64,000 nucleotides of DNA from an uncultured Thermoplasmata archaeon (GCA_963768855.1 CAVYJM010000010.1:3545-67544), one strand, 5' to 3'. Numbered from the stretch's first letter, positions 2,538 to 48,213 are shown. A program made the numbers and translations. Notes: generated by a model from the sequence alone, not told the origin.

Positions 2538-2559
2538 GTCAACCTTGTTTAAGGTTGAC
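2538..2559. promoter_or_regulatory. Copy a of the recurrent palindrome GTCAACCTT-GTTT-AAGGTTGAC
   Basis: Perfect 9-bp arms with a 4-nt spacer. It lies 17 nt after the stop at 2521, is followed by TTTTCC, and ends 40 nt before the ATG at 2599. It contains a TATA-like TTTAAGG. Confidence 0.5.
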
Positions 2560-7345: not shown

Positions 7346-7885
7346 CTACGCGCTCGCGAGGAGGTCCTTCGCGGTCACCAGTGCATGAAGGTGCACGGCG
7401 ATCTCCGCGAGGGCCATCTTCCCGCCTTCCTCGCGGTCGACGACCGCGACGACGTCGTCGATGACCGCGCCCTGCGCGCGCAGCCGCTCGATCGCGCCGC
7501 GTAGCGTGCCGCCCGTCGTGATGACGTCCTCGACGAAGAGCACCCGGTCGCCCTTCGCAAGTTCGCCTTCGAACTCCTTCTTCGTCCCGTGCTCCTTCGT
7601 CGCCTTGCGGACCATGAGGTAGGGCTTGTTCGACGCCAGGCTGACGGCCGCAGCGATGGGGACCGCGCCAAGTTCCACGCCCGCGATCCGGTCCGCGTGC
7701 GCCGCGAAGGGGGCCATCCCCTCGCCGATCGCACGGAGCAGGGCGGGCCGCGTCACGGCCTTCTTGATGTCGATGTAGAACGCGGAGGTCTTGCCCGAGG
7801 CCAGGGTGAACGTCCCGAACTGCAGCGCCCCGCACGCCTTGAGGTCCGCCAGGAACGCGGCGCGGTCGAACTCACCAGGGCTCAT
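7346..7885 (-). CDS. pyrE: Orotate phosphoribosyltransferase
   Basis: FGTFTLASGKTSAFYIDIK and the PRPP-binding motif VLFVEDVITTGGT. It overlaps the upstream gene's end by 14 nt, which suggests an operon. Confidence 0.9.
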   Translation of the reverse strand: MSPGEFDRAAFLADLKACGALQFGTFTLASGKTSAFYIDIKKAVTRPALLRAIGEGMAPFAAHADRIAGVELGAVPIAAAVSLASNKPYLMVRKATKEHGTKKEFEGELAKGDRVLFVEDVITTGGTLRGAIERLRAQGAVIDDVVAVVDREEGGKMALAEIAVHLHALVTAKDLLASA

Positions 7886-8969
7886 GCTTCTTCCCCATCC
7901 GGTAGCCGAGGATGTTCACGCCGCGATGCAGCGCGGGCGTGATAAGGATGATGGCGAGCACGCCATACCATGCGTCGCCCGAGAAGAACCGCGGCACGGA
8001 CCAGCCCGCGGCGAGGAGGCTGAGCAAGAGCCCACCCGCCACGAAATCGTACTGATCGAGGCCCGGCGCCTTCGCCCCGCGCGGCTTGTGCATCCGTCGC
8101 TTGACGAACGCGCCGACCAGGTCGCCCAGGAGCGCGCCGAACGCGAGGAGGCCGGACGCGAGGAACGCGTCGAGCGGCGCGCCGAAGGACCAGCCCGACG
8201 ACGGATCGAGGAAGACGAAGGGCAGGGCGAGCAGGAGGCCGAGGAGCGCCCCGCTCAGGGTGCCCCCGACGAGGCCCCGCCACGTCTTTCCGTCCCCGAA
8301 GAGCCGCTCGCCGTCCCGAAGGGTCTTCCCGAAATCCATCGGACGCCCGCCGCCCCACACGACCGCCATCGGGTTCGCGACGTACGCGGGCAGGAAGAAC
8401 CAGAGGGCCTGCGGGATCGCCTCGAGGGCCATCGCCGCGGCGAAGGGGATGGTTCCATATAAGCCACCGCCCGCCGGGCGCGAGCCACCATATTCGGAAC
8501 GGAGGCGCTTCCGCATCTCGAGGTTCATCTCGCTCTGGGAGACGACCTCGTAACCCGAGCTTTCGTACAGGGCGACGGCCACCGTGTTCCAGCGGAACAC
8601 GTTCAAGTGGAGCCATGTCACGCCGGCTTTCAGGAGACGGCGCTCGACCGCCTGGAGGAGACCGCGGCCGTATCCCTTCCCGCGGAGCGCGTCGTCGACG
8701 ACGATCTCGAAGAGCCATCGCTTCCCGCGGGCCCCCTTAGATCCCGGCACAGGCCCGAACCACGCCCAGCCGATCCGGCGGCCCGCGTCGTCCACGGCGA
8801 CGAAGAACTCGTGGCCCCGTTTCGCCGGGCTCGTTCCCACGGTCGAGGCGATCTCCCTGCGCGCCCGCGCGAGCGACTCCTCGCGGGACCAGAATCCCGC
8901 GCGCGCCTTCGCCTCGGCGTACTCGAACGCTTCCCCCTCGAGCGCGTTCCGGCGTTGGGTCGCGGTCAT
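7872..8969 (-). CDS. carS: GNAT acetyltransferase domain fused in one ORF to CDP-archaeol synthase (CarS)
   Basis: The N-terminal ~200 aa are GNAT-like (LFEIVVDDALRGKGYGRGLLQAVE). The C-terminal ~183 aa are CarS/DUF46-like (LPAYVANPMAVVWGG, DGKTWRG, GDLVGAFVKRR, ...GYRMGKKHEPW). There is no stop codon between them. An internal ATG (MALEAIPQALWFF) could also start a stand-alone CarS. The ORF extends up to 9050; I chose the ATG at 8969. Confidence 0.7.
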   Translation of the reverse strand: MTATQRRNALEGEAFEYAEAKARAGFWSREESLARARREIASTVGTSPAKRGHEFFVAVDDAGRRIGWAWFGPVPGSKGARGKRWLFEIVVDDALRGKGYGRGLLQAVERRLLKAGVTWLHLNVFRWNTVAVALYESSGYEVVSQSEMNLEMRKRLRSEYGGSRPAGGGLYGTIPFAAAMALEAIPQALWFFLPAYVANPMAVVWGGGRPMDFGKTLRDGERLFGDGKTWRGLVGGTLSGALLGLLLALPFVFLDPSSGWSFGAPLDAFLASGLLAFGALLGDLVGAFVKRRMHKPRGAKAPGLDQYDFVAGGLLLSLLAAGWSVPRFFSGDAWYGVLAIILITPALHRGVNILGYRMGKKHEPW

Positions 8970-9120
8970 CCGAACGAGCCGGACCGTCCGCGGGGAAGAA
9001 CGCGAAGACGGACCACGACGCGGAGCCACGACTCGATGACAACCCGCCACCCGCCATAGAGCTTGCCCGGACCGGTACCGCCCCGGTCCGCGCGCGTTTT
9101 CGGGGGTGATAATCTCCGCA

Positions 9121-22836: not shown

Positions 22837-24105
22837 TCAGAAGAGGGTCACGCGGACGGTCTCTCCCTTCTCCACGAGGTCGACGTTCGCGGGAATCTCG
22901 ATGTAGCCGTCCGCATGCGCCATCGACGTGATCGCGCCGCTCTCCTTGTAGGCGGGAACGGCCACCCCGTCGACGATGCGCACGGTGTGGAACTCGACAC
23001 GGCCGAGGGCGCTCGTCAACCGCTTCGCGAGCGGCGCCTCGACGACGCGCTCGACGGCGGGCGGGAGACGGGCCATGCGCCGCAGCATCGGAGCCAGGAT
23101 GAGGTAGCAGTTGCTCAGGCACGACGTCGGGTAGCCGGGCATTCCGAGGACCGCCTTGCCCTCGACGCGACCGAGGACGGTCGGCTTGCCCGGCTTGACC
23201 GCGACCCCGTGGAACAGGAGGTCTCCCATCTCTCGGAGCACGTCGATGATCATATCCTTCTCGCCGACGCTGGAACCGCCGCTGAAGACGACGAGATCCT
23301 CTCGGACCGCCTTCGCGAGGGCGTCATGGAGAGCGTCGAGGCGGTCTGCGACGCGGCCCTGGAGGACCGGCTCCCCGCCGTTCTCCCGCACAATCGAGGA
23401 CATCGTGTTCGCGTTGATGTCGTACACCTGGCCAGGGCGGATTGGATGCCCGGGCGGCACGACCTCGTCGCCCGTCGTGAGGATTGCGACCCTCGGCCTC
23501 GCATAGACGGAGACGCGATCCCGACCGATTGCCGCGAGCGCACCCACCTTCGCCGGGGTGAGCCATTCGCCCAGCGTGACGACGAGGGAGCCCTTGCGGA
23601 TGTCCTCTCCCTGGCCTGAGACGTTCTCCCGCGGATGCACGGGGCGGTATACCTTGACGACGTCCTTCTCGCGCTCCGTGTCCTCGACCATGACAACCGC
23701 GTCCGCTCCGCGAGGCAGGGTCGCACCCGTCGCGACCTCCGTGCACCGTCCCTTCGTCACGCGCTTCGCCGGCACGCCGTCCGCGTAGACTGTCTCCAGG
23801 ATTCGGAGGACCATGGGCTTGAACTTCCCCGCGCGGAACGTCTCGCGGGCGACGACGGCGTACCCGTCCATCGCCGCGCGGTCTGCCAGGGGCACGTCGA
23901 TCGGCGAGCGGACGTCCTCCGCGTTCACCCGGCGGAGAGACTCGAGGAGCGGGACCGTTTCGTGGCGCTCCAGTGGGACGGCGAGGTCCATGCACATCGT
24001 GAGCGCCTCGTCGAGGGCGATGAGCGCCTTGAGCGGGCGCATGCCGTGGCCCGGGTGCTCGCGGTCGTCGTGATCGTGCCCGCGGTGCGCGGTCGCTCGG
24101 TTCAT
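22837..24105 (-). CDS. moeA: Molybdopterin molybdenumtransferase MoeA
   Basis: MoeA N-terminal and linker domains plus the MoCF domain (VVFSGGSSVGEKD). The ATG at 24105 adds a His-rich leader (HRGHDHDDREHPGHG). The ATG at 24042 (MRPLKAL...) is the alternative start. Confidence 0.85.
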   Translation of the reverse strand: MNRATAHRGHDHDDREHPGHGMRPLKALIALDEALTMCMDLAVPLERHETVPLLESLRRVNAEDVRSPIDVPLADRAAMDGYAVVARETFRAGKFKPMVLRILETVYADGVPAKRVTKGRCTEVATGATLPRGADAVVMVEDTEREKDVVKVYRPVHPRENVSGQGEDIRKGSLVVTLGEWLTPAKVGALAAIGRDRVSVYARPRVAILTTGDEVVPPGHPIRPGQVYDINANTMSSIVRENGGEPVLQGRVADRLDALHDALAKAVREDLVVFSGGSSVGEKDMIIDVLREMGDLLFHGVAVKPGKPTVLGRVEGKAVLGMPGYPTSCLSNCYLILAPMLRRMARLPPAVERVVEAPLAKRLTSALGRVEFHTVRIVDGVAVPAYKESGAITSMAHADGYIEIPANVDLVEKGETVRVTLF

Positions 24106-24602
24106 CGGTTCATCACCCCGACCGCATGCCCGAGCTCCGGGAGAATGAGCTTCTCCATCGCGAGGCGGCACGCGTCGGGCGAGCCAGGGAGGCAGAACAC
24201 GATCCGGCCATGGTACACGCCTGCGGTGGCCCCGGAGAGCCAGGCCGCGCTCCCAATCGAGTCATAGGAAAGGCGCCGAAACAGTTCGCCGAAGCCGGGG
24301 AGCGTGCGCTCGAACTGCGGGGCCAGCGTCGGAATCGTCACGTCGCGTCGCCCGAGCCCGGTGCCCCCGTTCGTGATGATTGCCTCGCAGGTCCACGACG
24401 CCTGCTCGACTGCATCGGAGATGGCCTTCGGCTCGTCCTTGACGACCACGTAGAAGAGGACCGCGTGGCCCGCCTTGAGGAGGAGCTCACGGATGAGCCT
24501 GCCCGAGTCATCTGTCGCCTCTGTGCGGCTGTCCGAACTCGTGACGATCCCACATTTCACGGAAGCGGGAGCGTGGTCCTTGTGGTCCTGATGGACGGGC
24601 AT
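24102..24602 (-). CDS. moaB: Molybdenum cofactor biosynthesis protein MoaB/Mog-type
   Basis: VKCGIVTSSDSR..., ITNGGTGLGRRDVT and FCLPGSP. The start could be 24632, which would be leaderless relative to the palindrome/TATA at 24649-24670. Confidence 0.8.
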   Translation of the reverse strand: MPVHQDHKDHAPASVKCGIVTSSDSRTEATDDSGRLIRELLLKAGHAVLFYVVVKDEPKAISDAVEQASWTCEAIITNGGTGLGRRDVTIPTLAPQFERTLPGFGELFRRLSYDSIGSAAWLSGATAGVYHGRIVFCLPGSPDACRLAMEKLILPELGHAVGVMNR

Positions 24603-24648
24603 GCGCCAGAGGAGAAGACCAGCCAAGGTCAAAAGGTTCGTCCCGCAG

Positions 24649-24670
24649 GTTAACCTTATTCAAGGTTGAC
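24649..24670. promoter_or_regulatory. Copy b of the recurrent palindrome (GTTAACCTT-ATTC-AAGGTTGAC)
   Basis: 8 of 9 arm positions pair. It lies in the divergent intergenic region between moaB and the M50 protease gene. Confidence 0.45.
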
Positions 24671-24907
24671 GCAGATTTCTCCCCGACACTTCCGGAATGG
24701 CGTCTGATTGAGGCTGCGCACGTCTCACCATCCCGTGACGTGTTCGCGGACTGGCTCCGAGTGCAGTCGAGCCCAGGATGAATCCACACGAACGCTGGAA
24801 TCGCGGGAACCGAATCTGCCGCCAAGAACCCCCGCTGAACCGTCTAATACGGAGCGCGACATTGCCGCGGCGTGCCCTCCGCACGTGTCGAACCAACCCG
24901 TGCAGGG

Positions 24908-25600
24908 ATGCGGTTCACTCGCGTAGAGGGTAGGCAGATCTCCATCGGTGTTGCCGTGATGACGTTCGCGTTTGCGATCGCCTACATCGGCGGCGCACGG
25001 AATCTGGAGAGCTACTTCCGCTTCGGTGGCGACCTTCTGTTCCTGATCGTCCTCACCGGCTCCTTCGTCGCGGTCGTGACCGCGTTCTTCCTCCACGAGC
25101 TTGCGCACAAGGCGGTCGCCCAGCGTTACGGCGCGGTCGCGGAATACCGCTACTCTCCCGCGGGCCTCCTTGCGGGGCTCGTCACCGCCTTCATCGGCTG
25201 GATGCTCGCGATGCCGGGGGCCGTGGTCATTTCCGGACGGATCACCCCTCGACATCAGGTGCGAATCAGCGTGGCGGGACCCGCGGCGAACCTCGCCTTC
25301 GCGGCCGTGTTCATCGGCCTCTCGGTCGCGCTCGGCACGACCCCTGGTCGGTTCAGGGAGCCGATCCCGATCTTCGTCGGCACCCTTGCCTTCGTGAATC
25401 TGCTCCTGGCGGGGTTCAACCTCATCCCGGTCCCGCCCATTGCCTTCCATCGCGTCATTGCCGGGAGACTCCCTGTGAATGTGACGCTCCCCGCGAGCGA
25501 CGGGTTCCTGATTCTGGTGCCCAGCAAGGTGGTGTGGGCCACGTCGGTCGTGGCGCTCTTCGCACTGGGCATCGGGGGCCACTTGCTTGAAGTCTTCTAG
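24908..25600 (+). CDS. Site-2 protease family (M50) membrane metalloprotease
   Basis: HELAH zinc motif in a TM helix; FNLIPVPP...SDG downstream; multiple TM segments. Confidence 0.65.
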   Translation: MRFTRVEGRQISIGVAVMTFAFAIAYIGGARNLESYFRFGGDLLFLIVLTGSFVAVVTAFFLHELAHKAVAQRYGAVAEYRYSPAGLLAGLVTAFIGWMLAMPGAVVISGRITPRHQVRISVAGPAANLAFAAVFIGLSVALGTTPGRFREPIPIFVGTLAFVNLLLAGFNLIPVPPIAFHRVIAGRLPVNVTLPASDGFLILVPSKVVWATSVVALFALGIGGHLLEVF

Positions 25601-25705
25601 GTCGCGTTGACCGTCGCCGTCAGGCATCCCGCGCCGAGCCCATTGGCCAGGTTTGCGATTCATCGGCCGGGGGACATGCGTTGAGCATCGCTTGTCTCTC
25701 GGAGA

Positions 25706-26398
25706 CTAGGCGGCCGGTGGTGCAACGGAAGGCGAGGCAGCTTTGGGGGATATCTTAGGAACTCTGCGGTAGGCGTCGAGGTACGCGATGATGAATAGAG
25801 CGTAGGTCAGCGCAAAATAGGATCCGAAACCGGCAACCGATGCGTTGAGAGAACCGTCGGCGAGCGTGCGGGTCTGAAAGTCTTGGATAATCGCGCCGAA
25901 GTCCTGGGCAAGAACTTGCCCCATCCAGAAAGAAACAACCGCGGCCCAGCCAAGGGCGAGGAGGAGGAGAGCTTTGCCGACCCATGCTGTCAGATGGAGG
26001 GCAAGCAACACATACGTCGCGAACGTGAGGAACAGGGAAGCCATGAGCGCAGCGCCGAACACCCACGACACCCACCAGGATATCGGCGCGGCCGACCCGT
26101 AGCTGGACCAGACAAGCGTTGCGGCGCCCGCCACGAGAGCGACGAGGCTGAGCCCGAACGTCCGATGAGCGTGTCGGAATTCCCGGCTGAGGAGATCGTT
26201 CCACTGGTTGCGCCCCATCCAGAGGACAAAGATACCGGCCAGGGTGACGAAAGGCCCGAGGATGAAAATCACAGCGGCGTAGGGCAATCGGTAGCTGCGG
26301 CTGACGTACGCGTACGCCTCCATCGCCCCTTCGATTGCGAACCCTATGGTAAGAATCGCAAGGGTGAGGCGGAGCTTGGACACCACGGGCAACGGCAT
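25706..26398 (-). CDS. Multi-pass membrane protein, unknown function
   Basis: 230 aa with about 7 hydrophobic segments. No recognisable motif. Confidence 0.45.
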   Translation of the reverse strand: MPLPVVSKLRLTLAILTIGFAIEGAMEAYAYVSRSYRLPYAAVIFILGPFVTLAGIFVLWMGRNQWNDLLSREFRHAHRTFGLSLVALVAGAATLVWSSYGSAAPISWWVSWVFGAALMASLFLTFATYVLLALHLTAWVGKALLLLALGWAAVVSFWMGQVLAQDFGAIIQDFQTRTLADGSLNASVAGFGSYFALTYALFIIAYLDAYRRVPKISPKAASPSVAPPAA

Positions 26399-26468
26399 GC
26401 ATGCCTCCGGGCCTCTTCAAGAGGCCGACGCCGCAGCAAGCGAGACCGACATTTCCATCACCTGCATG

Positions 26469-26591
26469 GTGTCCTCACGTCTTCATGATGTCTCGGTCTG
26501 CCGGGCGTTTGCGGACGCGACCGCGGCCAACCGTCGAGTTGGCGGCATGCCTCTTGGCCGCGGTCTTCCTGCCGCCTCGGCTCTTCTTTGC
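26469..26591. repeat. Copy 1 of a 123-nt ungapped direct repeat (degenerate microprotein copy)
   Basis: Aligns without gaps to 27112-27234 with 103 of 123 identities (manual count). Read on the minus strand it gives ...TAKKSRGGRKTAAKRHAANSTVGRGRVRKRPADRDIMKT*, but the ATG is replaced by ACC. Confidence 0.8.
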
Positions 26592-26607
26592 GGTTCTTGC
26601 GTCACCT

Positions 26608-26751
26608 CTACCTAACCTTGATGACTCCCATGAGCAACAGGACCACAACCGCTAGCACGATTGCGCCAAGGAGACCAAACACCAGCCAGCCGATCAGGAA
26701 TGCCACCACGGAGCCCAGTCCAATGTGAGACCATTGCACGGTTATTGCCAT
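26608..26751 (-). CDS. Possible 47-aa single-pass membrane peptide
   Basis: MAITVQWSHIGLGSVVAFLIGWLVFGLLGAIVLAVVVLLLMGVIKVR. It follows the 111-aa membrane gene after a short gap. Support comes from hydrophobicity only. Confidence 0.3.
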   Translation of the reverse strand: MAITVQWSHIGLGSVVAFLIGWLVFGLLGAIVLAVVVLLLMGVIKVR

Positions 26752-26761
26752 CCATTCCACC

Positions 26762-27097
26762 TCACAGAGGACCGATGACGGTGGGCAGGATAAAGCCCAC
26801 GACCGCAGCGACAATCCACACGATGACCGCGACCACGAGCGCCTTGAGCCATCCCATCTCGTACAGACTCCCGAGCGCCAGCAGCCATACGAAGCCACCG
26901 ATCAAGCCCGCAAGGAGCCCCTGACCCAGGAAGTAATACGCCAAGGCGTAGATGATGGCCCCGACGAGGGCGGCCAACAAGGCCGTCCCGATCCCTTCCT
27001 TCTCCCCGAAGAGCTTCGTGACCACGTAGATGATGATCGCCGAGATGATCCATCCGATGAGGAAGAAGACCAAGGTCGTGACGAGCGACACTGCCAT
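26762..27097 (-). CDS. Small membrane protein (about 111 aa, 3-4 TM)
   Basis: MAVSLVTTLVFFLIGWIISAIIIYVV...; immediately downstream of the microprotein ORF. A truncated copy of its 5' end (MEMSVSLAAASAS*) follows repeat copy 1. Confidence 0.45.
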   Translation of the reverse strand: MAVSLVTTLVFFLIGWIISAIIIYVVTKLFGEKEGIGTALLAALVGAIIYALAYYFLGQGLLAGLIGGFVWLLALGSLYEMGWLKALVVAVIVWIVAAVVGFILPTVIGPL

Positions 27098-27111
27098 TTC
27101 CAATCACCCCA

Positions 27112-27234
27112 GTGTCCTCACGTCTTCATGATCTGTCGGCCTGCTTTGCGCTTTCGGACACGACCACGTCCACCCGGGGACTTCGCGGCCCGCCTCTTGG
27201 CCGCGGTCATTCTGCCGCCTCGGCTCTTCTTTGC
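27112..27234. repeat. Copy 2 of the 123-nt direct repeat (intact microprotein copy)
   Basis: See 26469-26591. Confidence 0.8.
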
Positions 27235-27237
27235 CAT
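27118..27237 (-). CDS. Candidate 39-aa Arg/Lys-rich microprotein
   Basis: An ATG-initiated ORF, MAKKSRGGRMTAAKRRAAKSPGGRGRVRKRKAGRQIMKT. The paralogous copy keeps the reading frame (no indels in 123 nt), which argues for coding constraint. It is below the ORF-track length cut-off. Confidence 0.4.
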   Translation of the reverse strand: MAKKSRGGRMTAAKRRAAKSPGGRGRVRKRKAGRQIMKT

Positions 27238-27358
27238 GAGTATAACCTTCTCCGATATCCAGAATCGCCACTCCACGGTTGGCCTCCCCCCTCAGGCCTG
27301 CGCGGCCCTCGGACAAGTATATTAGGTTCGTGTCCGATTCCCCCAACGGTTCTGGTTT

Positions 27359-28276
27359 ATGTGGTCACCAGACGACCAAGACATTCGTATCGTCAGGGCG
27401 CTGGCTTCGCCCCACTCGTTTCAGTGGGACGTCCGGATTTCCTATGCTAACGTGGCCAAGGGGCTCGCCCTCGACGAAGAGACAGTCAGGAACCGGCTGA
27501 GACGCATGAACGAGGTGGGGTTCCTGCAGGGATGGCAGCTCGTTCTCAACCCGAGCATGCTTGGCCGAAAAGCCGCCATGGTGGAGCTGGGGGTCAGCGC
27601 CCCGGAATCGAAGACCAGAGCGATTTCACGACTCAGACTCCTGGAGGGCGTGACGCTCATCGATGACTTCTATGGCAACAAGCTCGCCGTCCAAGTCTTG
27701 TACGTGAATGTGGGGACGCTGGAGAGACAGGTTCAACTGATCGCCTCCCTTTGCGACTGGCCAACCCCGGTTTGGTGGAAGCTCGGCTTCCCTCCCTGCG
27801 ATCTGACCCCTACCAGGACGGACTGGCAGATCATCCAAGCCCTGCGACAGAATGCGAGAGGGAGCCTGTCCGACGTCTCCCGCAGCCTGCGGATCTCTAC
27901 TCGGACAGTCAAGAGGCACCTGCAACACTTGGTCGAAGGGAATGCGTTCTACCTCGATCCCGTCCTGGACTTGGGAAAGGTCGGCGGCGTGCGATGCCGA
28001 CTCTGGGTCGTCTGCGAAGCGAACAAGAAGGAAGCCGTCGACCAGATGATTCTGTCCGGACTCCCGAGGATTATCTCGACCCACACCGCGCCGCAGGAGT
28101 ACTCCCTTTTCGTCGTCCACTGCTCCAACGCGTCGGAGGTGCAGGAGATCTCGCAGTGGGCGGGGAAGCTGGAGGGCGTCAAGGAAGTCCGATCGAACAT
28201 CGACGTGGAACATATCCACATTCAGGAATGGCTTGACGAGGAAATTGAGAAACGGTCGTCGACGCCGGCCTCCTAG
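27359..28276 (+). CDS. Tandem (double) Lrp/AsnC-type transcriptional regulator
   Basis: Two HTH plus ligand-domain modules in one chain: DIRIVRAL...SYANVAKGLALDEETVRNRLRRM... and DWQIIQALRQNARGSLSDVSRSLRISTRTVKRHLQHL... Confidence 0.6.
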   Translation: MWSPDDQDIRIVRALASPHSFQWDVRISYANVAKGLALDEETVRNRLRRMNEVGFLQGWQLVLNPSMLGRKAAMVELGVSAPESKTRAISRLRLLEGVTLIDDFYGNKLAVQVLYVNVGTLERQVQLIASLCDWPTPVWWKLGFPPCDLTPTRTDWQIIQALRQNARGSLSDVSRSLRISTRTVKRHLQHLVEGNAFYLDPVLDLGKVGGVRCRLWVVCEANKKEAVDQMILSGLPRIISTHTAPQEYSLFVVHCSNASEVQEISQWAGKLEGVKEVRSNIDVEHIHIQEWLDEEIEKRSSTPAS

Positions 28277-28375
28277 CCTGCACACGCCTCCACTAGGAAG
28301 ACCGGCGGACCGCTCTTGACGGAGAGTCTCCCGCAGGTTGGGGGAGACCAGGAAGCGCGTTGCGCGCGTCCGCCA

Positions 28376-28720
28376 TTACTGGAGGACCGGATCGCGGCAA
28401 TCCCTTCTGCGTCCAGGCCTGGAAGGCAGGGGACGACCAGCGCAAGGAAGACCATCACGCCGAGCGGCGACCGATGCGATTAGGAGACGAGATCGACAAA
28501 CGATCCATTGCGTGCCGCCAGGAGGCGCCGCCCCAGCGGTGCTCTCACTTGTCGCGTTGTCGACGAGCTCGCAGATGAATCGCGACACGGAAACGCCGTG
28601 GAGAGCGGCCTCCGCCCTCCACTCCCCGAACATGTCGGAGGTCGGGAAGTAGACCGTCACGGTCCTCTGTTCGGTCGTATGCGTTTTTCCCCGCTTGGAG
28701 CTTGCCGGGCCTTTCTTCAT
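28376..28720 (-). CDS. Ribbon-helix-helix (CopG-like) DNA-binding protein
   Basis: The N-terminal RTVTVYFPTSDMFGEWRAEAALHGVSVSRFICELV shows the beta-alpha-alpha RHH pattern. The C-terminal ~60 codons read through direct repeat A and may not be genuine. It is divergent from cls with only a 39-nt spacer. Confidence 0.5.
   Translation of the reverse strand: MKKGPASSKRGKTHTTEQRTVTVYFPTSDMFGEWRAEAALHGVSVSRFICELVDNATSESTAGAAPPGGTQWIVCRSRLLIASVAARRDGLPCAGRPLPSRPGRRRDCRDPVLQ
28416..28519. repeat. Direct repeat A (left flank of the RHH-cls-PHP cassette)
   Basis: About 75-78% identical, with one 1-nt indel, to 31333-31435 (manual alignment). It carries a degenerate copy of the radical SAM gene's last codons and stop (AARNGSFVDLVS* versus AERVGSFVGLAS*). 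Confidence 0.75.
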
Positions 28721-28759
28721 GTGTATCGGTATTTAGAGCGCTTCACTCATACCACTTGT

Positions 28760-30226
28760 ATGGCCTTGGTGGACGTCTGGAACTTCATACTGGGCGACCC
28801 TCTGAAGATTTTCCTCTGGATTAACGCGGCCCTCATCATCATCACCATCATCTTCATAAAACCCAGGAAGGTGACCTCGGTCTATCTCTGGATCGCTGCC
28901 TTCCTGGTCCTGCCTGTGGTCTTCGTTCTGATCTTCTACCTCTTCTTCGGCCGTGACTATCATCACCGCCAGGTCTTCAGGAACAAGGGAGTAAGCGATG
29001 TCCAGGTGGTGGAGCTGCTCCGGCAGCAGCGGAAGACGCTGGCCTTCTCCAGTGACACCTACGAGAACACGCTGCACGAGAACATGTGGCTGGCGAAGAT
29101 GCTGCTCAACACGAACCGCAGCTTCGTGACCTCGGACAACGAGGTGCGCTACATCAACGACGGCAACGAGTTCTTCGAGACCATGTTCGCGCAGATTCGC
29201 AGCGCGAAGCACTTCATTCACCTCGAGATGTATATCGTGCGCGACGACGAGCTCGGCAGAAGACTGGCGCATGAGCTCGCCCTGAAGGCCAAGGAGGGCG
29301 TAGAGGTCAAGCTGCTGGTGGACGCGGTGGGCTCGCACAAGCTGCCCCGCAAGTTCTTCCAGGAACTGCGGGATGCGGGAGGCAAGACGGCCGAGTTCTT
29401 CCCCTCCTGGATCCGGGCCGTCAACACCCGCTTCAACAACCGCAACCACCGCAAGCTGATGATCGTGGATGGCGAGGAGGGCTTCTGCAGCGGCTTCAAC
29501 GTCGGCATCGAGTATATCGGCCGAGGCCCGCTGGGCCCGTGGCGGGACGACGCGGTCTTCCTCAGGGGCGGGTCGACCATCGCGCTGGAGGCGCGTTTCA
29601 TCCAAGACTGGAACTTCGCGGCCAAGGACAATACCACAATCACGCCGTATCTGCCCGATGGCCCGGGCCCCGGCAAGAGCCAAGTGCAAATCGTCTCCGG
29701 AGGGCCGGACACGGAGTACAGCCCCATCAATCATCACTATCTGAAGATGATCACCTCCGCCACGAAGAAGGTCTACATCCAGACGCCCTACTTCGTTCCA
29801 GAAGACCCCATCGCCACCGCCCTGCGAATGGCGGCCGAGTCGGGGGTCGAGGTGAAGCTCATGATCCCCAGCAAGCCGGACCATCCCTTCGTGTTCTGGG
29901 CCACGACCTACAACGCAGGCGAACTGCTGAGGTCGGGAGTGCATGTCTACAAGTTCCGACCCGGGTTCATCCATGCTAAGATCTGCATGATCGATGACCA
30001 GGTCGCCAGCGTGGGGAGCGCCAACTTCGATGTGAGGAGCTTCGAGCTTAACTTCGAGACCAACGCCGTCATCTACGATGCCGATGTCGCGGCCGCCATT
30101 CGTGACAAGTTCCTTGACGATGTCGCCAACCGCAGCGACGAGCTGACCAAGGAATCGTACGCCCAGCGCGGGAATTGGGTCAAGTTCAAGGAGGCCATCG
30201 CGCGCCTCTACACCCCCATCGCCTGA
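28760..30226 (+). CDS. cls: Cardiolipin synthase (PLD superfamily, two HKD motifs)
   Basis: Two N-terminal TM helices, HKD-1 HRKLMIVDGEEGFCSGFNVG and HKD-2 IHAKICMIDDQVASVGSANFDVRSFELNFE. Visibly lower GC than the flanking chromosome. Confidence 0.85.
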   Translation: MALVDVWNFILGDPLKIFLWINAALIIITIIFIKPRKVTSVYLWIAAFLVLPVVFVLIFYLFFGRDYHHRQVFRNKGVSDVQVVELLRQQRKTLAFSSDTYENTLHENMWLAKMLLNTNRSFVTSDNEVRYINDGNEFFETMFAQIRSAKHFIHLEMYIVRDDELGRRLAHELALKAKEGVEVKLLVDAVGSHKLPRKFFQELRDAGGKTAEFFPSWIRAVNTRFNNRNHRKLMIVDGEEGFCSGFNVGIEYIGRGPLGPWRDDAVFLRGGSTIALEARFIQDWNFAAKDNTTITPYLPDGPGPGKSQVQIVSGGPDTEYSPINHHYLKMITSATKKVYIQTPYFVPEDPIATALRMAAESGVEVKLMIPSKPDHPFVFWATTYNAGELLRSGVHVYKFRPGFIHAKICMIDDQVASVGSANFDVRSFELNFETNAVIYDADVAAAIRDKFLDDVANRSDELTKESYAQRGNWVKFKEAIARLYTPIA

Positions 30227-31126
30227 TCACTTAGGCTTTTCCTGGTTCAGCTCGTTCCGCACCCGGCGGAGGTAGTGCTTGAACCGCGGGGCGTTTTGCT
30301 GGTAGTTTATGGCCATGGCGGGCAGGAAGTAGCGGCTGTGCTTGGCCACCATCACCATGCCCGTGGCCAGCTTCTGCAGCGGCCCCTTCTCGCAGCCTAT
30401 GACCACGTTCCGGCGGGCCGCAATCGCGTCCAAGAAGCCCTCCAACGTCGTCTCGTGAGCGCAGGTGACGACGCCCCCCACGTCCGAGAGCATGTGTCCG
30501 TCCGTGCCGCCGGTGAAGGCCATCTTCCTTTCATGCGCCAGCCGCATCGCCTTGACGTTCAGCGAGTGCGTCATGCCGCCGGATATCACCTCCAGGCCAT
30601 CGAAGCGCCTCACGGTCTCCGGCGACAGGTACTTCGCGCCAATGCTCTTCAGCAGACCCTTGTTGAAGATCAGATAGCCATAGGGGTGCGCCGCGATCGT
30701 GACGCAGTTGTACTCCTCGGCGCGGTCGACAATCTCCTGCGTGCCTAGCTTGATGGCCAGCCAAGGGCTGCCCTGCCGGTTCGGCTCGATGTGGCGCCTG
30801 AAATAGTCCTCCAGGTCGCGAGGCGAATAGAAGTAGGTGAGGATATGGGGGCCGTCGAAGGCGCTGACCTCCATGCCCGGGACTACCAGCAGGTCCCCCC
30901 GGTCCCTGAAGGCTTGCAGAGATCCGGAGATGACGTTGTGATCGGTGATGGCCACCCCGAAGTCGCGCATGCGGGCTTTCGCCAGCACATCGTGCACCCG
31001 GGCATGGCCGTCCGAGTGGTCTGTGTGGAAGTGCATGTCGACGGCCGATAGGCCTTCCGTCTCCAGCTGTACCATGTCGGGGATCTCGAAACGGACCGGC
31101 CCGCTGCTGTGGTCTGAGCGCGGCAT
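30227..31126 (-). CDS. PHP-domain metal-dependent phosphoesterase
   Basis: DMHFHTDHSDGH, ITDHN, AAHP and GGTDGH metal-ligand blocks. Its stop codon abuts the cls stop with zero spacer. Confidence 0.7.
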   Translation of the reverse strand: MPRSDHSSGPVRFEIPDMVQLETEGLSAVDMHFHTDHSDGHARVHDVLAKARMRDFGVAITDHNVISGSLQAFRDRGDLLVVPGMEVSAFDGPHILTYFYSPRDLEDYFRRHIEPNRQGSPWLAIKLGTQEIVDRAEEYNCVTIAAHPYGYLIFNKGLLKSIGAKYLSPETVRRFDGLEVISGGMTHSLNVKAMRLAHERKMAFTGGTDGHMLSDVGGVVTCAHETTLEGFLDAIAARRNVVIGCEKGPLQKLATGMVMVAKHSRYFLPAMAINYQQNAPRFKHYLRRVRNELNQEKPK

Positions 31127-31332
31127 CTAGTCCTCGGCCAAGATAGCGACGGGTGGGGTTAGAAGCTATGCGCCAACCTAGCACCAAATAGGCGCTCAGG
31201 ATCGCATTTCGCCGGTGAGGAACGAATGCGTCTTCACCCCTCCTGCCGGTTCGCTTCCATCGATGAATCGATGTTGCTCGGGCTGGTCGCTGGGTTCTTC
31301 ATCAGCATCGGTTTCGTCTCTCCGACAGCCAA

Positions 31333-31435
31333 GGCATGGAAGGCAGGGATCGCCGTCCGAGGGAAGAGCGTCGCGCCGGGCGGTGACGGAACCGATTAGG
31401 AGGCAAGGCCGACGAACGATCCAACGCGTTCCGCT
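31333..31435. repeat. Direct repeat B (right flank of the cassette; contains the true 3' end of the radical SAM gene)
   Basis: See 28416-28519. Confidence 0.75.
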
Positions 31436-33021
31436 ACGGCGGGATCGTCGAGGGCGGCGGCGAATTCGACCAGGGTCGCAAACGGTCGGCGCCGCACGAT
31501 GCGCGCCGCGCGCTTGGCCCCGACGCCGGGCAGGGCCTCAAGGGCCCTCAACGAGGCGCGATTCACGTCAAGCGGGAACTCCACGCCGGTCACGGACCGC
31601 TCGCCGTGGCTCGTGATCTTCACGTCCACGAACCGAGTGACGTCGAGATCATAGGGCAAGCCGACGAGGATTGGATAAGTTCCGATCTGGCGCCCGTACG
31701 TCACGTGGCCGTGTCGAATCTCGAGATACACGTCTCGCAGAACGGTTCCTTCGGGGAGGACGCGGCGGAGCATTTCATGGTCGACGCCTGCCCGCACAGA
31801 TTCCTTGAAACGCCGGAACTCGGAATGCAGCCCCGTGGGCTCGAATTCCTGGCGTACGGGACGAACCTGGCGGATGTTGATCCGCCGAACCCAGAGGTCC
31901 TCCTCGAGGAGATGCTTCAGAAAGGCGAGATTCAGATCGAAGGTCTTCTTCGTTTCGCCCGTCAAACCCGTGACGAAGTTGAGACCAGGTAGGAGCTGCG
32001 GCAGGCCGTTTTCCCCACGCTCCCGGCCCACGGCGTTGACCATGCGGATGGCCTGAAGACATCCGTCCGCGTCGATGTTGAGGTTGTTCGCCTCCGTGAC
32101 CGCGGGATCCGCGGACTCGAGGCCGAAGGAGAGAAGGTTGCCCGGGGACGTGTACCGCACCAGGAGGCGGAGAGCCGCCGTGGCCTCGTCCGGATGGGCG
32201 ACCATCATCGCAGGGTCGCCGTTGTCCGTGTGGAGGATCCGCAGCCGCGGCGCGGCCTCGTGGATCCCGCGGAGGAGGGCCTCAAGCGCCGGGACGTTGA
32301 CCTGCGGCGTCGGAGAGCCGCCGAGGCCGATCGCCTGGTAGCTGAAGAAGTCCGCCTGGCCTCCGAGGCGGAAATTGACCGCGCCGAGGGACGCGAGCTT
32401 CCGGACCTCCGCAAGGATCCCGTCCAGCGGGCGGAACTTCGTGATCCCGTACTGAGGCTCGACACAGAAGCTGCAGCCGCCGTTCACGTAGCGCACGCAG
32501 CCCTTCGTGGTGTCGATCTCGACGATGAGCGGTTCCGGGAAGTCAGGATGCCGGGCGATGACGTCCGCGCCGAGGAGGGCCCAACGGTCCCACTCCGCCA
32601 TCGTGCGGTCGCGGTCCTCCCACTCGCCCTTCGTCAGGTGGTCGTACACGCAGACATCGAGGTCGCGGACCGCCACATGGTCGAACGGCTCGACGAGGGC
32701 GTCGTCGAAGAAGCGGAACCGGGCCAGGGGACCGCCGAACACGCTCGGGCCCTTGAAGGCGGTTGCGTGACGGAGGATCTCCTTCTCGCTGATGGGCAGG
32801 CTCCGGAGGTACTTGCCCGGGACGATCGGCCCGGAGATGATCGCGAGGAGGTCGCCGTGGAGCGGGTGACCGGCGCGCGCCCGGTCGATCGTGACATACT
32901 CCCATTCATGGCCCGCATCCGCCACGGCGCCTGCGAGGTACCGCGGGTACGGGGAAATGAAGGGCGGCACGCCGAAGTTGGACGGCTCGTCGACGTAGCC
33001 GTCCAGGATCACGACCTTCAT
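31396..33021 (-). CDS. Radical SAM-family protein with a C-terminal helix-hairpin-helix
   Basis: Cys cluster TKGCVRYVNGGCSFC, TIM-barrel-like core (NFRLGGQADFFSY, HTDNGDP) and C-terminal HhH LEALPGVGAKRAARIV. Confidence 0.6.
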   Translation of the reverse strand: MKVVILDGYVDEPSNFGVPPFISPYPRYLAGAVADAGHEWEYVTIDRARAGHPLHGDLLAIISGPIVPGKYLRSLPISEKEILRHATAFKGPSVFGGPLARFRFFDDALVEPFDHVAVRDLDVCVYDHLTKGEWEDRDRTMAEWDRWALLGADVIARHPDFPEPLIVEIDTTKGCVRYVNGGCSFCVEPQYGITKFRPLDGILAEVRKLASLGAVNFRLGGQADFFSYQAIGLGGSPTPQVNVPALEALLRGIHEAAPRLRILHTDNGDPAMMVAHPDEATAALRLLVRYTSPGNLLSFGLESADPAVTEANNLNIDADGCLQAIRMVNAVGRERGENGLPQLLPGLNFVTGLTGETKKTFDLNLAFLKHLLEEDLWVRRINIRQVRPVRQEFEPTGLHSEFRRFKESVRAGVDHEMLRRVLPEGTVLRDVYLEIRHGHVTYGRQIGTYPILVGLPYDLDVTRFVDVKITSHGERSVTGVEFPLDVNRASLRALEALPGVGAKRAARIVRRRPFATLVEFAAALDDPAVAERVGSFVGLAS

Positions 33022-35687: not shown

Positions 35688-35708
35688 GCAACCTTACTTA
35701 AGGTTAAC
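35688..35708. promoter_or_regulatory. Copy c of the recurrent palindrome (GCAACCTT-ACTT-AAGGTTAAC)
   Basis: Lies in the divergent intergenic region between the 78-aa ORF/moaDE unit and hflX. Confidence 0.45.
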
Positions 35709-47332: not shown

Positions 47333-48157
47333 GTGCCGCGGTTCATCTCCGTGGAGCTCGCCCGGAACACCTACTACACGGGCGACGTCCTCGAGGGGAC
47401 CGTGGTCCTCGAGACGACGAAGGAGACCCCGAGCCGCGGGCTCTACGTCGACTTCACCGGCAAGGAGGAAACGCAGATCACGCGGAGCAGCGGCAAGCAG
47501 AGCGTGACCTACCGATCCGAGGCGGCGCTCGTGAGCTGGCGCCTCCCGCTCCAGGGCGAGGCGACGATCGCCCCGGGCGCCTACCGGTTCCCGTTCAAGT
47601 TCCAGGTGCCCCTCCAGGGACTGCCTTCCTATCAGGGTCGCCACGCGGTCGTGAAGTACATCCTGAGCGCGCGGCTCGACGTACCCCTGTGGCTCGACAC
47701 GGTCTGGAGCAACGAGGTCTTCGTGTTCTACGACCGGCCGAGCGTCCGCACGTTCTCCGAGCCCGCGCGGTTCCGTTCCGGCGGGGATGGTCCCGAGGTC
47801 TACGTCGAGCTGGACGGGGACCGGTTCTTCGCGCGCGAGATGATCGGCTGCCGGATCACCCTGCTCCGGGCAGGGGACCAGCGGATCCGGCGCCTGTACG
47901 CGCGCCTCATCGGCGCCGAGTTCGCCCAGGCCCAGAGCCAGCACGAGGAGACGACGACCTTCCGCACCGAGGTCGATGTGCCCGCAGAACAGATCAAGCT
48001 CGGGGTCCCGTTCACGTTCGAGATCCCGATCCCCGGCAACGTGCAGTCGGCCTATCGCGGGACGTACTCGTACTACAGCTACATGCTCCAGATCGGCCTC
48101 GACATCGCCTGGGGGTTCGACTTGGTCGCCCAGACCCCCATCGTCATCGTCCGCTGA
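47333..48157 (+). CDS. Arrestin-like / Spo0M-like beta-sandwich protein
   Basis: GTG start. N-terminal Y-x-x-G-D-x-L-x-G-x-V pattern (YYTGDVLEGTVVLETTKE...LYVDFTGKEE) and a second similar half (FFAREMIGCRITLL...RRLYARLIGAE), as in the two arrestin lobes. Confidence 0.45.
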   Translation: MPRFISVELARNTYYTGDVLEGTVVLETTKETPSRGLYVDFTGKEETQITRSSGKQSVTYRSEAALVSWRLPLQGEATIAPGAYRFPFKFQVPLQGLPSYQGRHAVVKYILSARLDVPLWLDTVWSNEVFVFYDRPSVRTFSEPARFRSGGDGPEVYVELDGDRFFAREMIGCRITLLRAGDQRIRRLYARLIGAEFAQAQSQHEETTTFRTEVDVPAEQIKLGVPFTFEIPIPGNVQSAYRGTYSYYSYMLQIGLDIAWGFDLVAQTPIVIVR

Positions 48158-48190: not shown

Positions 48191-48213
48191 GTCAACCTTG
48201 TTTAAGGTTGCAC
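48191..48213. promoter_or_regulatory. Copy d of the recurrent palindrome (GTCAACCTT-GTTT-AAGGTTGCAC)
   Basis: The first 20 nt are identical to copy a. It begins 34 nt after the stop at 48157 and ends 50 nt before the ATG at 48264. Confidence 0.5.

Follow-up and report, generated by a model that had tools for sequence, protein, structure and literature searches.

Among thaumarchaeal integrated mobile genetic elements (iMGEs), 14 of 68 lie in the 3'-distal parts of protein genes, and arrays of these elements form by re-use of a site (PMC6563490). A protein gene likewise borders e14 in Escherichia coli, where icd stands on one side of the element and the C-terminal pseudogene icdC on the other (PMC13626634, citing Hill et al. 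1989). In the tycheposon islands of Prochlorococcus, successive integrations at one target gene displace older elements outward (bioRxiv 10.1101/2020.12.28.424599). Here we analyze a 64,000-nucleotide (nt) stretch of DNA from an uncultured Thermoplasmata archaeon (GCA_963768855.1, CAVYJM010000010.1:3545-67544), hereafter the window, in which a cassette with a predicted cardiolipin synthase gene (cls) and a PHP-family phosphoesterase gene lies between two direct repeats, A and B, behind a radical-SAM gene (rSAM). Positions count from the first letter of the window, and related loci carry L numbers.

The locus shares several features with the thaumarchaeal iMGEs: flanking direct repeats, one of which overlaps the 3' end of a gene that stays intact; an empty site in relatives; arrays built by re-use of the same site; and cargo of foreign base composition (PMC6563490). 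It differs in that the window cassette has no integrase, the repeats are longer (104 to 109 nt) and diverged (76 to 90%), and what is left is 2.8 kb with two working genes, in a Thermoplasmata host and at a radical-SAM/HhH target. The likeness to e14 (and phage 21) in icd (PMC13626634) is that the element supplies a substitute 3' end and the working gene becomes a mosaic. Further, the diverged copy of the gene tail at the far junction of e14 (icdC) resembles both repeat A and a 72-codon rSAM fragment in L075. By contrast, e14 has retained its integrase and can still excise; here no recombinase remains, and in the window the repeats agree over no more than 12 consecutive bases. With tycheposon islands the locus has in common growth beside one target gene, degenerate elements, extra partial copies of the target and adaptive cargo. 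Tycheposons target tRNA genes and their islands hold many copies of tyrosine recombinases, whereas in the present locus a protein gene is targeted and the lineages examined showed no recombinase.

A discrete insertion behind the radical-SAM gene

The target gene (31396 to 33021, minus strand) encodes a radical-SAM protein whose C terminus is a ComEA-like HhH domain (Pfam Radical_SAM and HHH_3; PDB 2duy matches residues 480 to 534). Repeat B (31332 to 31434, minus strand; attL-like) holds the genuine last 13 rSAM codons and the stop codon, ending on the minus strand in AERVGSFVGLAS and the stop, and then 64 nt of downstream sequence. Repeat A (28415 to 28518, minus strand; attR-like) holds a non-functional copy of those 13 codons in the same frame, ending in AARNGSFVDLVS and a stop, and then the homologous 64 nt; the native flank towards an Lrp/AsnC-like gene comes next. 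By local alignment and BLASTN, A and B are identical at 79 of 104 positions (76%), and the alignment needs a single 1-nt gap. In a BLASTN search of the whole 64-kb window, the pair had E = 5e-15 and there was no third copy. An independent repeat scan of the window recovered an ungapped A/B core of 73 nt at 78%, and the longest identical run is 12 nt. The initial annotation had described direct repeats of about 104 nt, 75 to 78% identical with one 1-nt indel, B with the end of rSAM and A with an in-frame copy that includes the stop; all of this stands, with coordinates one base off.

Many weak matches arise in GC-rich DNA, as the other repeat families of the window scan illustrate, and the A/B similarity might be due to chance or composition. 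However, the local score of 81 compares with 19.9 +/- 2.4 in 1000 shuffles (z = 25.7), the E value is as given above, and the pair is conserved in several lineages. We therefore discard chance as an explanation. A candidate hairpin after the stop codon was dropped, as it has 4 weak pairs only and covariation was not found in it.

An exact empty site exists. In L142 (GCA_030157145.1, contig JASDBE010002733.1), rSAM is followed by one repeat copy, by the flank that lies distal to A in the window, and by the Lrp gene. The L142 rSAM tail is 93 to 95% identical to the B side upstream of the repeat, and the sequence after its single repeat is 77 to 81% identical to the A-side flank of the window over 150 columns, up to the Lrp stop. 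The distance from the rSAM stop to the Lrp stop is 204 nt in L142, compared with 205 nt from the pseudo-stop of A in the window, and the native stretch that separates repeat A from the Lrp stop (28277 to 28414) is intergenic and colinear with the post-repeat sequence of L142. This arrangement identifies the inserted DNA as 28519 to 31331 plus one repeat copy. Aligned with the A and B sides, L142 sets both junctions of this 2,813-nt cassette at the repeat edges. The repeats delimit a discrete insertion, and A and B are best explained as scars left at its two junctions, left and right, when foreign DNA entered immediately behind rSAM long ago.

Similarly, the closest relatives by flanking sequence, L002 and L003, are cassette-free. 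L003 and the window are colinear between about 21.3 and 45 kb, with 84 to 89% nucleotide identity, yet L003 lacks cls, PHP and the RHH-type gene described below. Neither cls, PHP nor RHH was found in 36 rSAM loci from GTDB species. L002 and L003 were considered as exact empty sites and rejected: their 333-nt intergenic sequence matches only beside Lrp and over about 60 nt after the stop, and they carry a different tail/spacer allele.

At least two further lineages, L076/L077 and L141, have the same A/B pair. Orthologous B copies are present in L076, L137, L141 and L143, and the A copies of L075, L076/77, L134 and L139 are 90 to 92% identical to, or alignable with, that of the window. Among lineages, A copies are 90 to 92% identical to one another and B copies 84 to 85%, compared with 76 to 79% between A and B within one genome. 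Since A copies group together and B copies likewise, the duplication is older than the spread between lineages. In L141, A and B are 90.5% identical; their first ~70 nt are identical, which may reflect gene conversion, and the remainder is diverged. Further, the L141 copy at the A position is B-like, with 89% identity to the B of L076 versus 73% to other A copies. A and B have thus exchanged sequence with each other since insertion.

The initial annotation placed three genes between the repeats, among them a CopG/RHH gene. That gene is a pseudogene, the 5' stump (about 56 codons; 28552 to 28720, minus strand) of an RHH-type regulator gene. Its homology to the full-length relatives P0001 (161 aa) and P0004 (165 aa) stops at ELVDNA; both run on for about 100 residues beyond the end of the window copy near 28552, and the nominal open reading frame (ORF; 28376 to 28720) continues through repeat A in a different frame. 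The stump evolves neutrally, with equal identity at codon positions 1+2 and 3 (0.91/0.90 and 0.88/0.86). In L139, a 1-nt indel puts the repeat-A part of the ORF in the rSAM frame and its stop is mutated. Pfam and NCBIfam gave no match to the ORF, and only the pattern of its N terminus suggests an RHH fold. The family is rare, with only 4 matches among 5.8 billion proteins, and it was not found in GTDB genomes or IMG/VR. The stump-to-repeat junction recurs in every cassette-bearing lineage where it is visible. The spacer between cls and the stump measures 42 nt, not the 39 nt first reported.

In L140, a full-length RHH gene is followed, after 77 nt, by a gene for a 284-aa Phage_integrase/Xer-like tyrosine recombinase (Pfam), and in L138 a full-length RHH gene opens an island with DUF499, Vsr and cytosine methylase genes. 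The RHH stump fits a decayed element, as it is a neutral 5' fragment whose full-length relative precedes a tyrosine recombinase. Searched by tblastn for the L140 recombinase, the window and all loci gave no match except L140 itself.

The cls-PHP cargo and its spread

Two working genes remain in the cassette. The cls gene (28763 to 30226, plus strand) encodes a predicted ClsA-type cardiolipin synthase with two PLD/HKD domains (Pfam PLDc_2 twice, E 1e-43, and PLDc) and matches the curated NCBIfam equivalog TIGR04265 over its full length (477 bits, cutoff 290). Convergent with it is a gene for a predicted PHP-family metal-dependent phosphoesterase (30227 to 31126, minus strand; Pfam PHP 31.7 bits, cutoff 26.4; PHP_C 33.9 bits, cutoff 21.3), for which the only PDB relatives, 3e0f and 2yb1, are weak. 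The stop codons of cls and PHP meet at 30226/30227. Purifying selection acts on both genes, with identities of 0.98 at codon positions 1+2 versus 0.91 at position 3 for cls, and 0.95 versus 0.89 for PHP. In exact-protein look-ups, the PHP protein and the RHH ORF were not on record.

The region upstream of PHP within the cassette (31127 to 31331, minus strand) includes a stretch, 31187 to 31331, without a match in other cls-PHP loci. A 42-aa transmembrane mini-ORF had been noted at repeat B; its frame (31226 to 31399) is not conserved in L076 or L137. No tRNA or Rfam family was found in or near the region. Relatives of cls or rSAM were not found on viral contigs, and there was no sign of a provirus.

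Convergent cls-PHP pairs, their stops usually abutting, recur in Thermoplasmata, Methanomassiliicoccales and Methanomicrobiales (Methanoregulaceae, Methanolinea and Methanocorpusculum). Besides the window, they are found in L037, L038, L040, L042, L043, L046, L048, L049, L061, L063, L068, L071, L078, L080, L085 to L091 and L096 to L100; a few loci (L081, L083 and L084) have cls without an adjacent PHP gene. No PHP partner was seen beside the bacterial cls genes retrieved. Nucleotide homology between the window and other Thermoplasmata cls-PHP loci (74 to 83%; contig GC 0.53 to 0.59) is confined to about 28736 to 31186. On the cls side it reaches about 20 nt beyond the start of the gene in the upstream direction, and on the PHP side 20 to 60 nt. 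The cls homologues of Methanomicrobiales are 41 to 46% identical to that of the window, and several of them are also paired with PHP. Because the pair recurs across archaea and not beside the bacterial cls genes retrieved, the cargo is an archaeal two-gene module and no direct bacterial import. The proposal that a bacterial-type cls had been brought into an archaeon is thus not borne out; by nucleotide homology, the pair in the window is closest to that of lower-GC Thermoplasmata.

Base composition agrees with a foreign origin, as the GC content of the cassette is 0.608 versus 0.674 for the rest of the window and its cls-PHP relatives lie on contigs of 0.53 to 0.59. The cassette is AT-richer than the chromosome, as noted at the outset, but it shares this property with the neighboring island genes (0.618) and with the 3' part of rSAM, over which the low GC also extends; the low-GC zone runs from about 24250 to 32000.

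An archaeal PLD-type cardiolipin synthase, MhCls, has been described from Methanospirillum hungatei (PMC8141893). The predicted Cls of the window belongs to the same ClsA-type family, with two HKD/PLDc_2 domains. Archaeal Cls proteins have been reviewed as occurring mostly in halophiles and methanogens (PMC9385802), whereas this one is found in an uncultured Thermoplasmata lineage (environmental metagenomes), on a laterally spread cassette. Its junctions and an empty site make the locus a detailed record of how an uncultured archaeal lineage gained a predicted membrane-lipid function through such a cassette. The cls-PHP pairing itself suggests that the two genes are functionally connected, perhaps by a phosphatase step that could feed or balance cardiolipin synthesis, and makes the PHP protein a candidate for a step tied to cardiolipin or archaetidylglycerol metabolism. 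We regard this conserved pairing as the most useful by-product of the analysis.

The cassette is carried by the window and by L075, L076/77, L134, L137, L139, L141 and L143. L003, the nearest relative by its flanks (88 to 89% nucleotide identity), is without it, whereas the more distant L077 (about 80%) has it at about 95%, which shows lateral exchange. Between the window and L077, identity at third codon positions is 0.62 to 0.65 in core genes, 0.74 to 0.81 in the older island and the 3' part of rSAM, and 0.89 to 0.91 in Lrp, the RHH stump, cls and PHP. The youngest shared block, about 27150 to 31100, takes in Lrp and stops before repeat B. Since its insertion, the cassette has spread via homologous recombination of a larger block that includes Lrp.

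Origin of the cassette

The 3' end of rSAM has received foreign DNA more than once. L075 carries an island 91.7% identical in nucleotide sequence to that of the window over its whole length, and its MoeA-side flank is closest to that of the island-free L004 and L007 (83 to 84%). At the far edge of this island, beside the M50-like gene (L075, 2585 to 2801), stands a second rSAM tail of 72 codons and a stop, ending in VAKRVEPFVSLAS, with a GC content of 0.72. This tail and the DNA downstream of it are colinear with the native interval from rSAM to MoeA of L004 (76% over 1.25 kb), and the second tail is a displaced native 3' end of rSAM. In the window, L003 and L076 the displaced tail is lost and only the shared island end (CTCCGTATTAGAYGGTTCAG) is kept. 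In turn, the working rSAM gene is a mosaic, with a distinct allele over its last ~700 nt (about 31396 to 32100) in all island-bearing genomes. The GC content of this 3' allele is 56 to 64%, compared with 65 to 73% in island-free genomes, and among island-bearing genomes the 3' part is 85 to 97% identical whereas the 5' part (75 to 85%) has diverged like the core genome. A flexible island has thus grown, in repeated rounds, from the 3' end of a single housekeeping gene.

Our preferred reading, to which we assign a probability of about one half, sees in the cassette what decay has left of an element once integrated, site-specifically, at the 3' end of rSAM. The original event would have been integration of a circular element by an integrase of the tyrosine-recombinase type, at an attachment site overlapping the last 13 or more rSAM codons and the following 64 nt. 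A recombination module would have sat beside the RHH gene, and the deletion that truncated RHH would have removed it; the cassette would since have been domesticated cargo, unable to move. The order gene, B, cassette, A, older island, (C) and native flank is the outcome of repeated integration at a single site, as known from archaeal and cyanobacterial elements (PMC6563490; bioRxiv 10.1101/2020.12.28.424599). An AGCGG shared by the starts of the A/B and C homologies was judged compatible with chance. An integrase-less or decayed mobile cassette had been suggested at the outset; the insertion, the empty site and the RHH stump fit decay, but the latest spread did not occur at the repeats and the mechanism is inferred. 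The mobility aspect is in itself an instance of a known phenomenon.

Several points weigh against site-specific integration. In keeping with the initial annotation, no integrase or transposase was found in the cassette, the island or 20 further ORFs of the window (all housekeeping), no integrase was found in the related loci checked, and no recombinase turned up in the lineages examined. For the presumed integrase to have been deleted, the end point of the deletion has to lie no more than about 33 nt from repeat A. At 104 to 109 nt, the repeats are longer than the 29- to 69-bp att sites of crenarchaea (PMC6563490). The link between RHH and a recombinase comes from one contig, L140, on which the recombinase gene is followed by NurA/HerA-like genes; the best NCBIfam match of this recombinase, to archaeal XerA, is below the cutoff (162 bits versus 220), so it could be of the chromosomal Xer type, and with 4 matches the RHH family is too rare for its association with recombinases to be tested. 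Because the youngest block ignores the repeat edges, the latest transfers are homologous replacements rather than recombination at the repeats. A and B are about equidistant from the single copy in L142 and from the L001 to L003 sequences, which makes the resident and the incoming copy indistinguishable. Finally, all comparison sequences are metagenome contigs or metagenome-assembled genomes (MAGs). The assembly with the empty site, GCA_030157145.1, holds two versions of the rSAM-Lrp locus, L142 and L145, on 20-kb and 496-kb contigs, and its bin is for this reason a mix of strains or species.

The main alternative, though less likely, is integrase-free capture. A circularised fragment with PHP, cls and the truncated RHH gene, already joined to an rSAM tail, would have entered by a single Campbell-type crossover that duplicated the ~105-nt homology, and later movement would have been homologous too. 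No integrase was found in the checked related loci with island or cassette, the latest spread is a homologous block that disregards the repeats, the rSAM mosaics have variable crossover points, the repeats do recombine (as L141 illustrates), and the unit shared by all lineages already has its truncated RHH gene abutting the repeat. However, such capture requires a donor with the cassette beside an rSAM tail, which shifts the question of origin to that donor, and for a single crossover an arm of 105 nt is short. Nor does it account for the truncated regulator of a recombinase-adjoining family at the junction, or for two hits on one gene end whose limits differ (13 and 72 codons). Alternatively, in a clade of Thermoplasmata the rSAM tail and the ~60 nt after it could be a dedicated landing pad for cargo modules, at which integrase-less cassettes such as PHP, cls and truncated RHH move in and out at the ~105-nt repeat by means of a recombinase acting in trans. 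Its traces would be threefold: L142 with its exact empty site, L075 with its second, displaced tail, and the mosaic exchange of A and B across lineages. We think this improbable; if true, archaea would have their own version of the island building known from integrons or tycheposons, with a protein gene as the site.

The empty site can itself be read in the opposite direction. As the repeats exchange sequence (L141), A x B recombination could delete the cassette, and the state of L142 may be either ancestral or a secondary loss of this kind. The cassette could then be old and vertically inherited within the island, with loss in L142, by A x B recombination, and in L002 and L003; the repeat would then not mark an insertion into an ancestral empty site. 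Such recombination yields exactly the L142 arrangement, the carriers are many, and homologues of two island membrane-protein genes, mem230 and mem113, adjoin cls-PHP in other Thermoplasmata (L037, L038, L048 and L085). Yet vertical descent leaves the origin of the duplication unexplained, and the spread data weigh against it: Lrp and the cassette form the youngest block at synonymous sites, and the presence of the cassette in L077 and not in L003 runs against their relatedness. Further, cls is absent from all 36 GTDB rSAM loci of the clade, the intergenic sequence of L002 and L003 is unlike an A x B deletion product, and the GC content and nearest relatives of the cassette indicate a lower-GC source. 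We consider vertical inheritance unlikely. Insertion of a transposon or casposon, with the repeats as target-site duplication, is effectively refuted. Direct repeats do flank the insert, and casposons target the 3' ends of protein genes in Thermoplasmata relatives and Thaumarchaeota (PMC6563490). However, no terminal inverted repeats were found at the cassette ends, and no Cas1, PolB or transposase genes in the cassette or island. Casposon target-site duplications are about 14 to 15 bp long, compared with 104 nt here.

The island between rSAM and MoeA

Relatives of rSAM with 70 to 88% amino acid identity are present in 30-odd uncultured Thermoplasmata MAGs, where the usual gene order is MoaC, DUF5654, rSAM and MoeA. 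MoeA lies directly downstream of rSAM in L004 to L009, L012, L016, L017, L021, L022, L025, L029 and L146. In the window, about 7 kb separate rSAM from its native far-side flank, the MoeA gene (22840 to 24261, minus strand; Pfam MoeA_N, MoCF_biosynth and MoeA_C). The downstream genes of L001 are uninformative on account of a scaffold gap of Ns, and in the non-syntenic L020, L023 and L026, HerA/Rad50-type and other genes were found downstream of rSAM, and no integrase.

Most of this distance is an older island layer (24872 to 28276; GC 0.618) that is absent in most relatives, in which MoeA follows rSAM directly. It comprises genes for an M50-like protein (24872 to 25600, plus strand), the 230-aa membrane protein mem230 (25706 to 26398, minus strand), a small basic ORF (26475 to 26648, minus strand), the 113-aa membrane protein mem113 (26762 to 27103, minus strand), a 39-aa basic protein (approximately 27118 to 27237, minus strand) and the Lrp/AsnC-like regulator (27359 to 28276, plus strand). 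The content of the interval differs widely between relatives, which marks it as a flexible genomic island. L146 has nothing there; L005 has an insertion sequence (DDE transposase) and no integrase; L142 has Lrp and mem113; L145 has Lrp and an ice-binding-like protein; L003 has Lrp, an ice-binding-like protein, a glycosyltransferase, mem113, mem230 and M50; and L141 has Lrp, a glycosyltransferase, mem113, mem230 and M50 together with the cassette. The cassette is the youngest, innermost layer of the low-GC island (about 24850 to 32000) between rSAM and MoeA. Bounded by its repeats, it belongs to a larger island that also takes in Lrp, mem113, mem230, M50 and the 3' part of rSAM.

A second point of cargo turnover lies between Lrp and mem113, where genes for ice-binding-like secreted proteins and/or family-2 glycosyltransferases are found (L003, 12958 to 15868; L145, 12931 to 14370; L141, 16110 to 17159). 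The very basic 39-aa protein (MAKKSRGGRMTAAKRRAAKSPGGRGRVRKRKAGRxIMKT), encoded just upstream of mem113, is 77 to 97% identical in amino acid sequence in L003, L028, L038, L048 and L075 to L077. A diverged paralogue, the small basic ORF upstream of mem230 (26475 to 26648), is interrupted in L076/77. The 123-nt direct repeat at 26469 to 26591 and 27112 to 27234 (84%) is the duplication of this basic protein.

The palindrome AACCTT-N4-AAGGTT occurs four times in the window (2541 to 2556, 24652 to 24667, 35690 to 35705 and 48194 to 48209), with 0.01 occurrences expected. It is also present about 50 nt past the rSAM stop in many island-free relatives, between rSAM and MoCF/MoeA, and near ThiS/MoaE. 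It is probably an operator of a molybdenum-cofactor regulon and marks the native side of the island boundary.

Elsewhere in the window, a 392-aa ORF (7872 to 9050, minus strand) combines a GNAT acetyltransferase (residues 78 to 173) with a CDP-archaeol synthase (residues 212 to 392), either as a fusion or as two genes merged by the ORF call, and a gene at 47333 to 48157 (plus strand) encodes a 274-aa protein with an Arrestin_N domain (E 2.7e-21, 76.6 bits).

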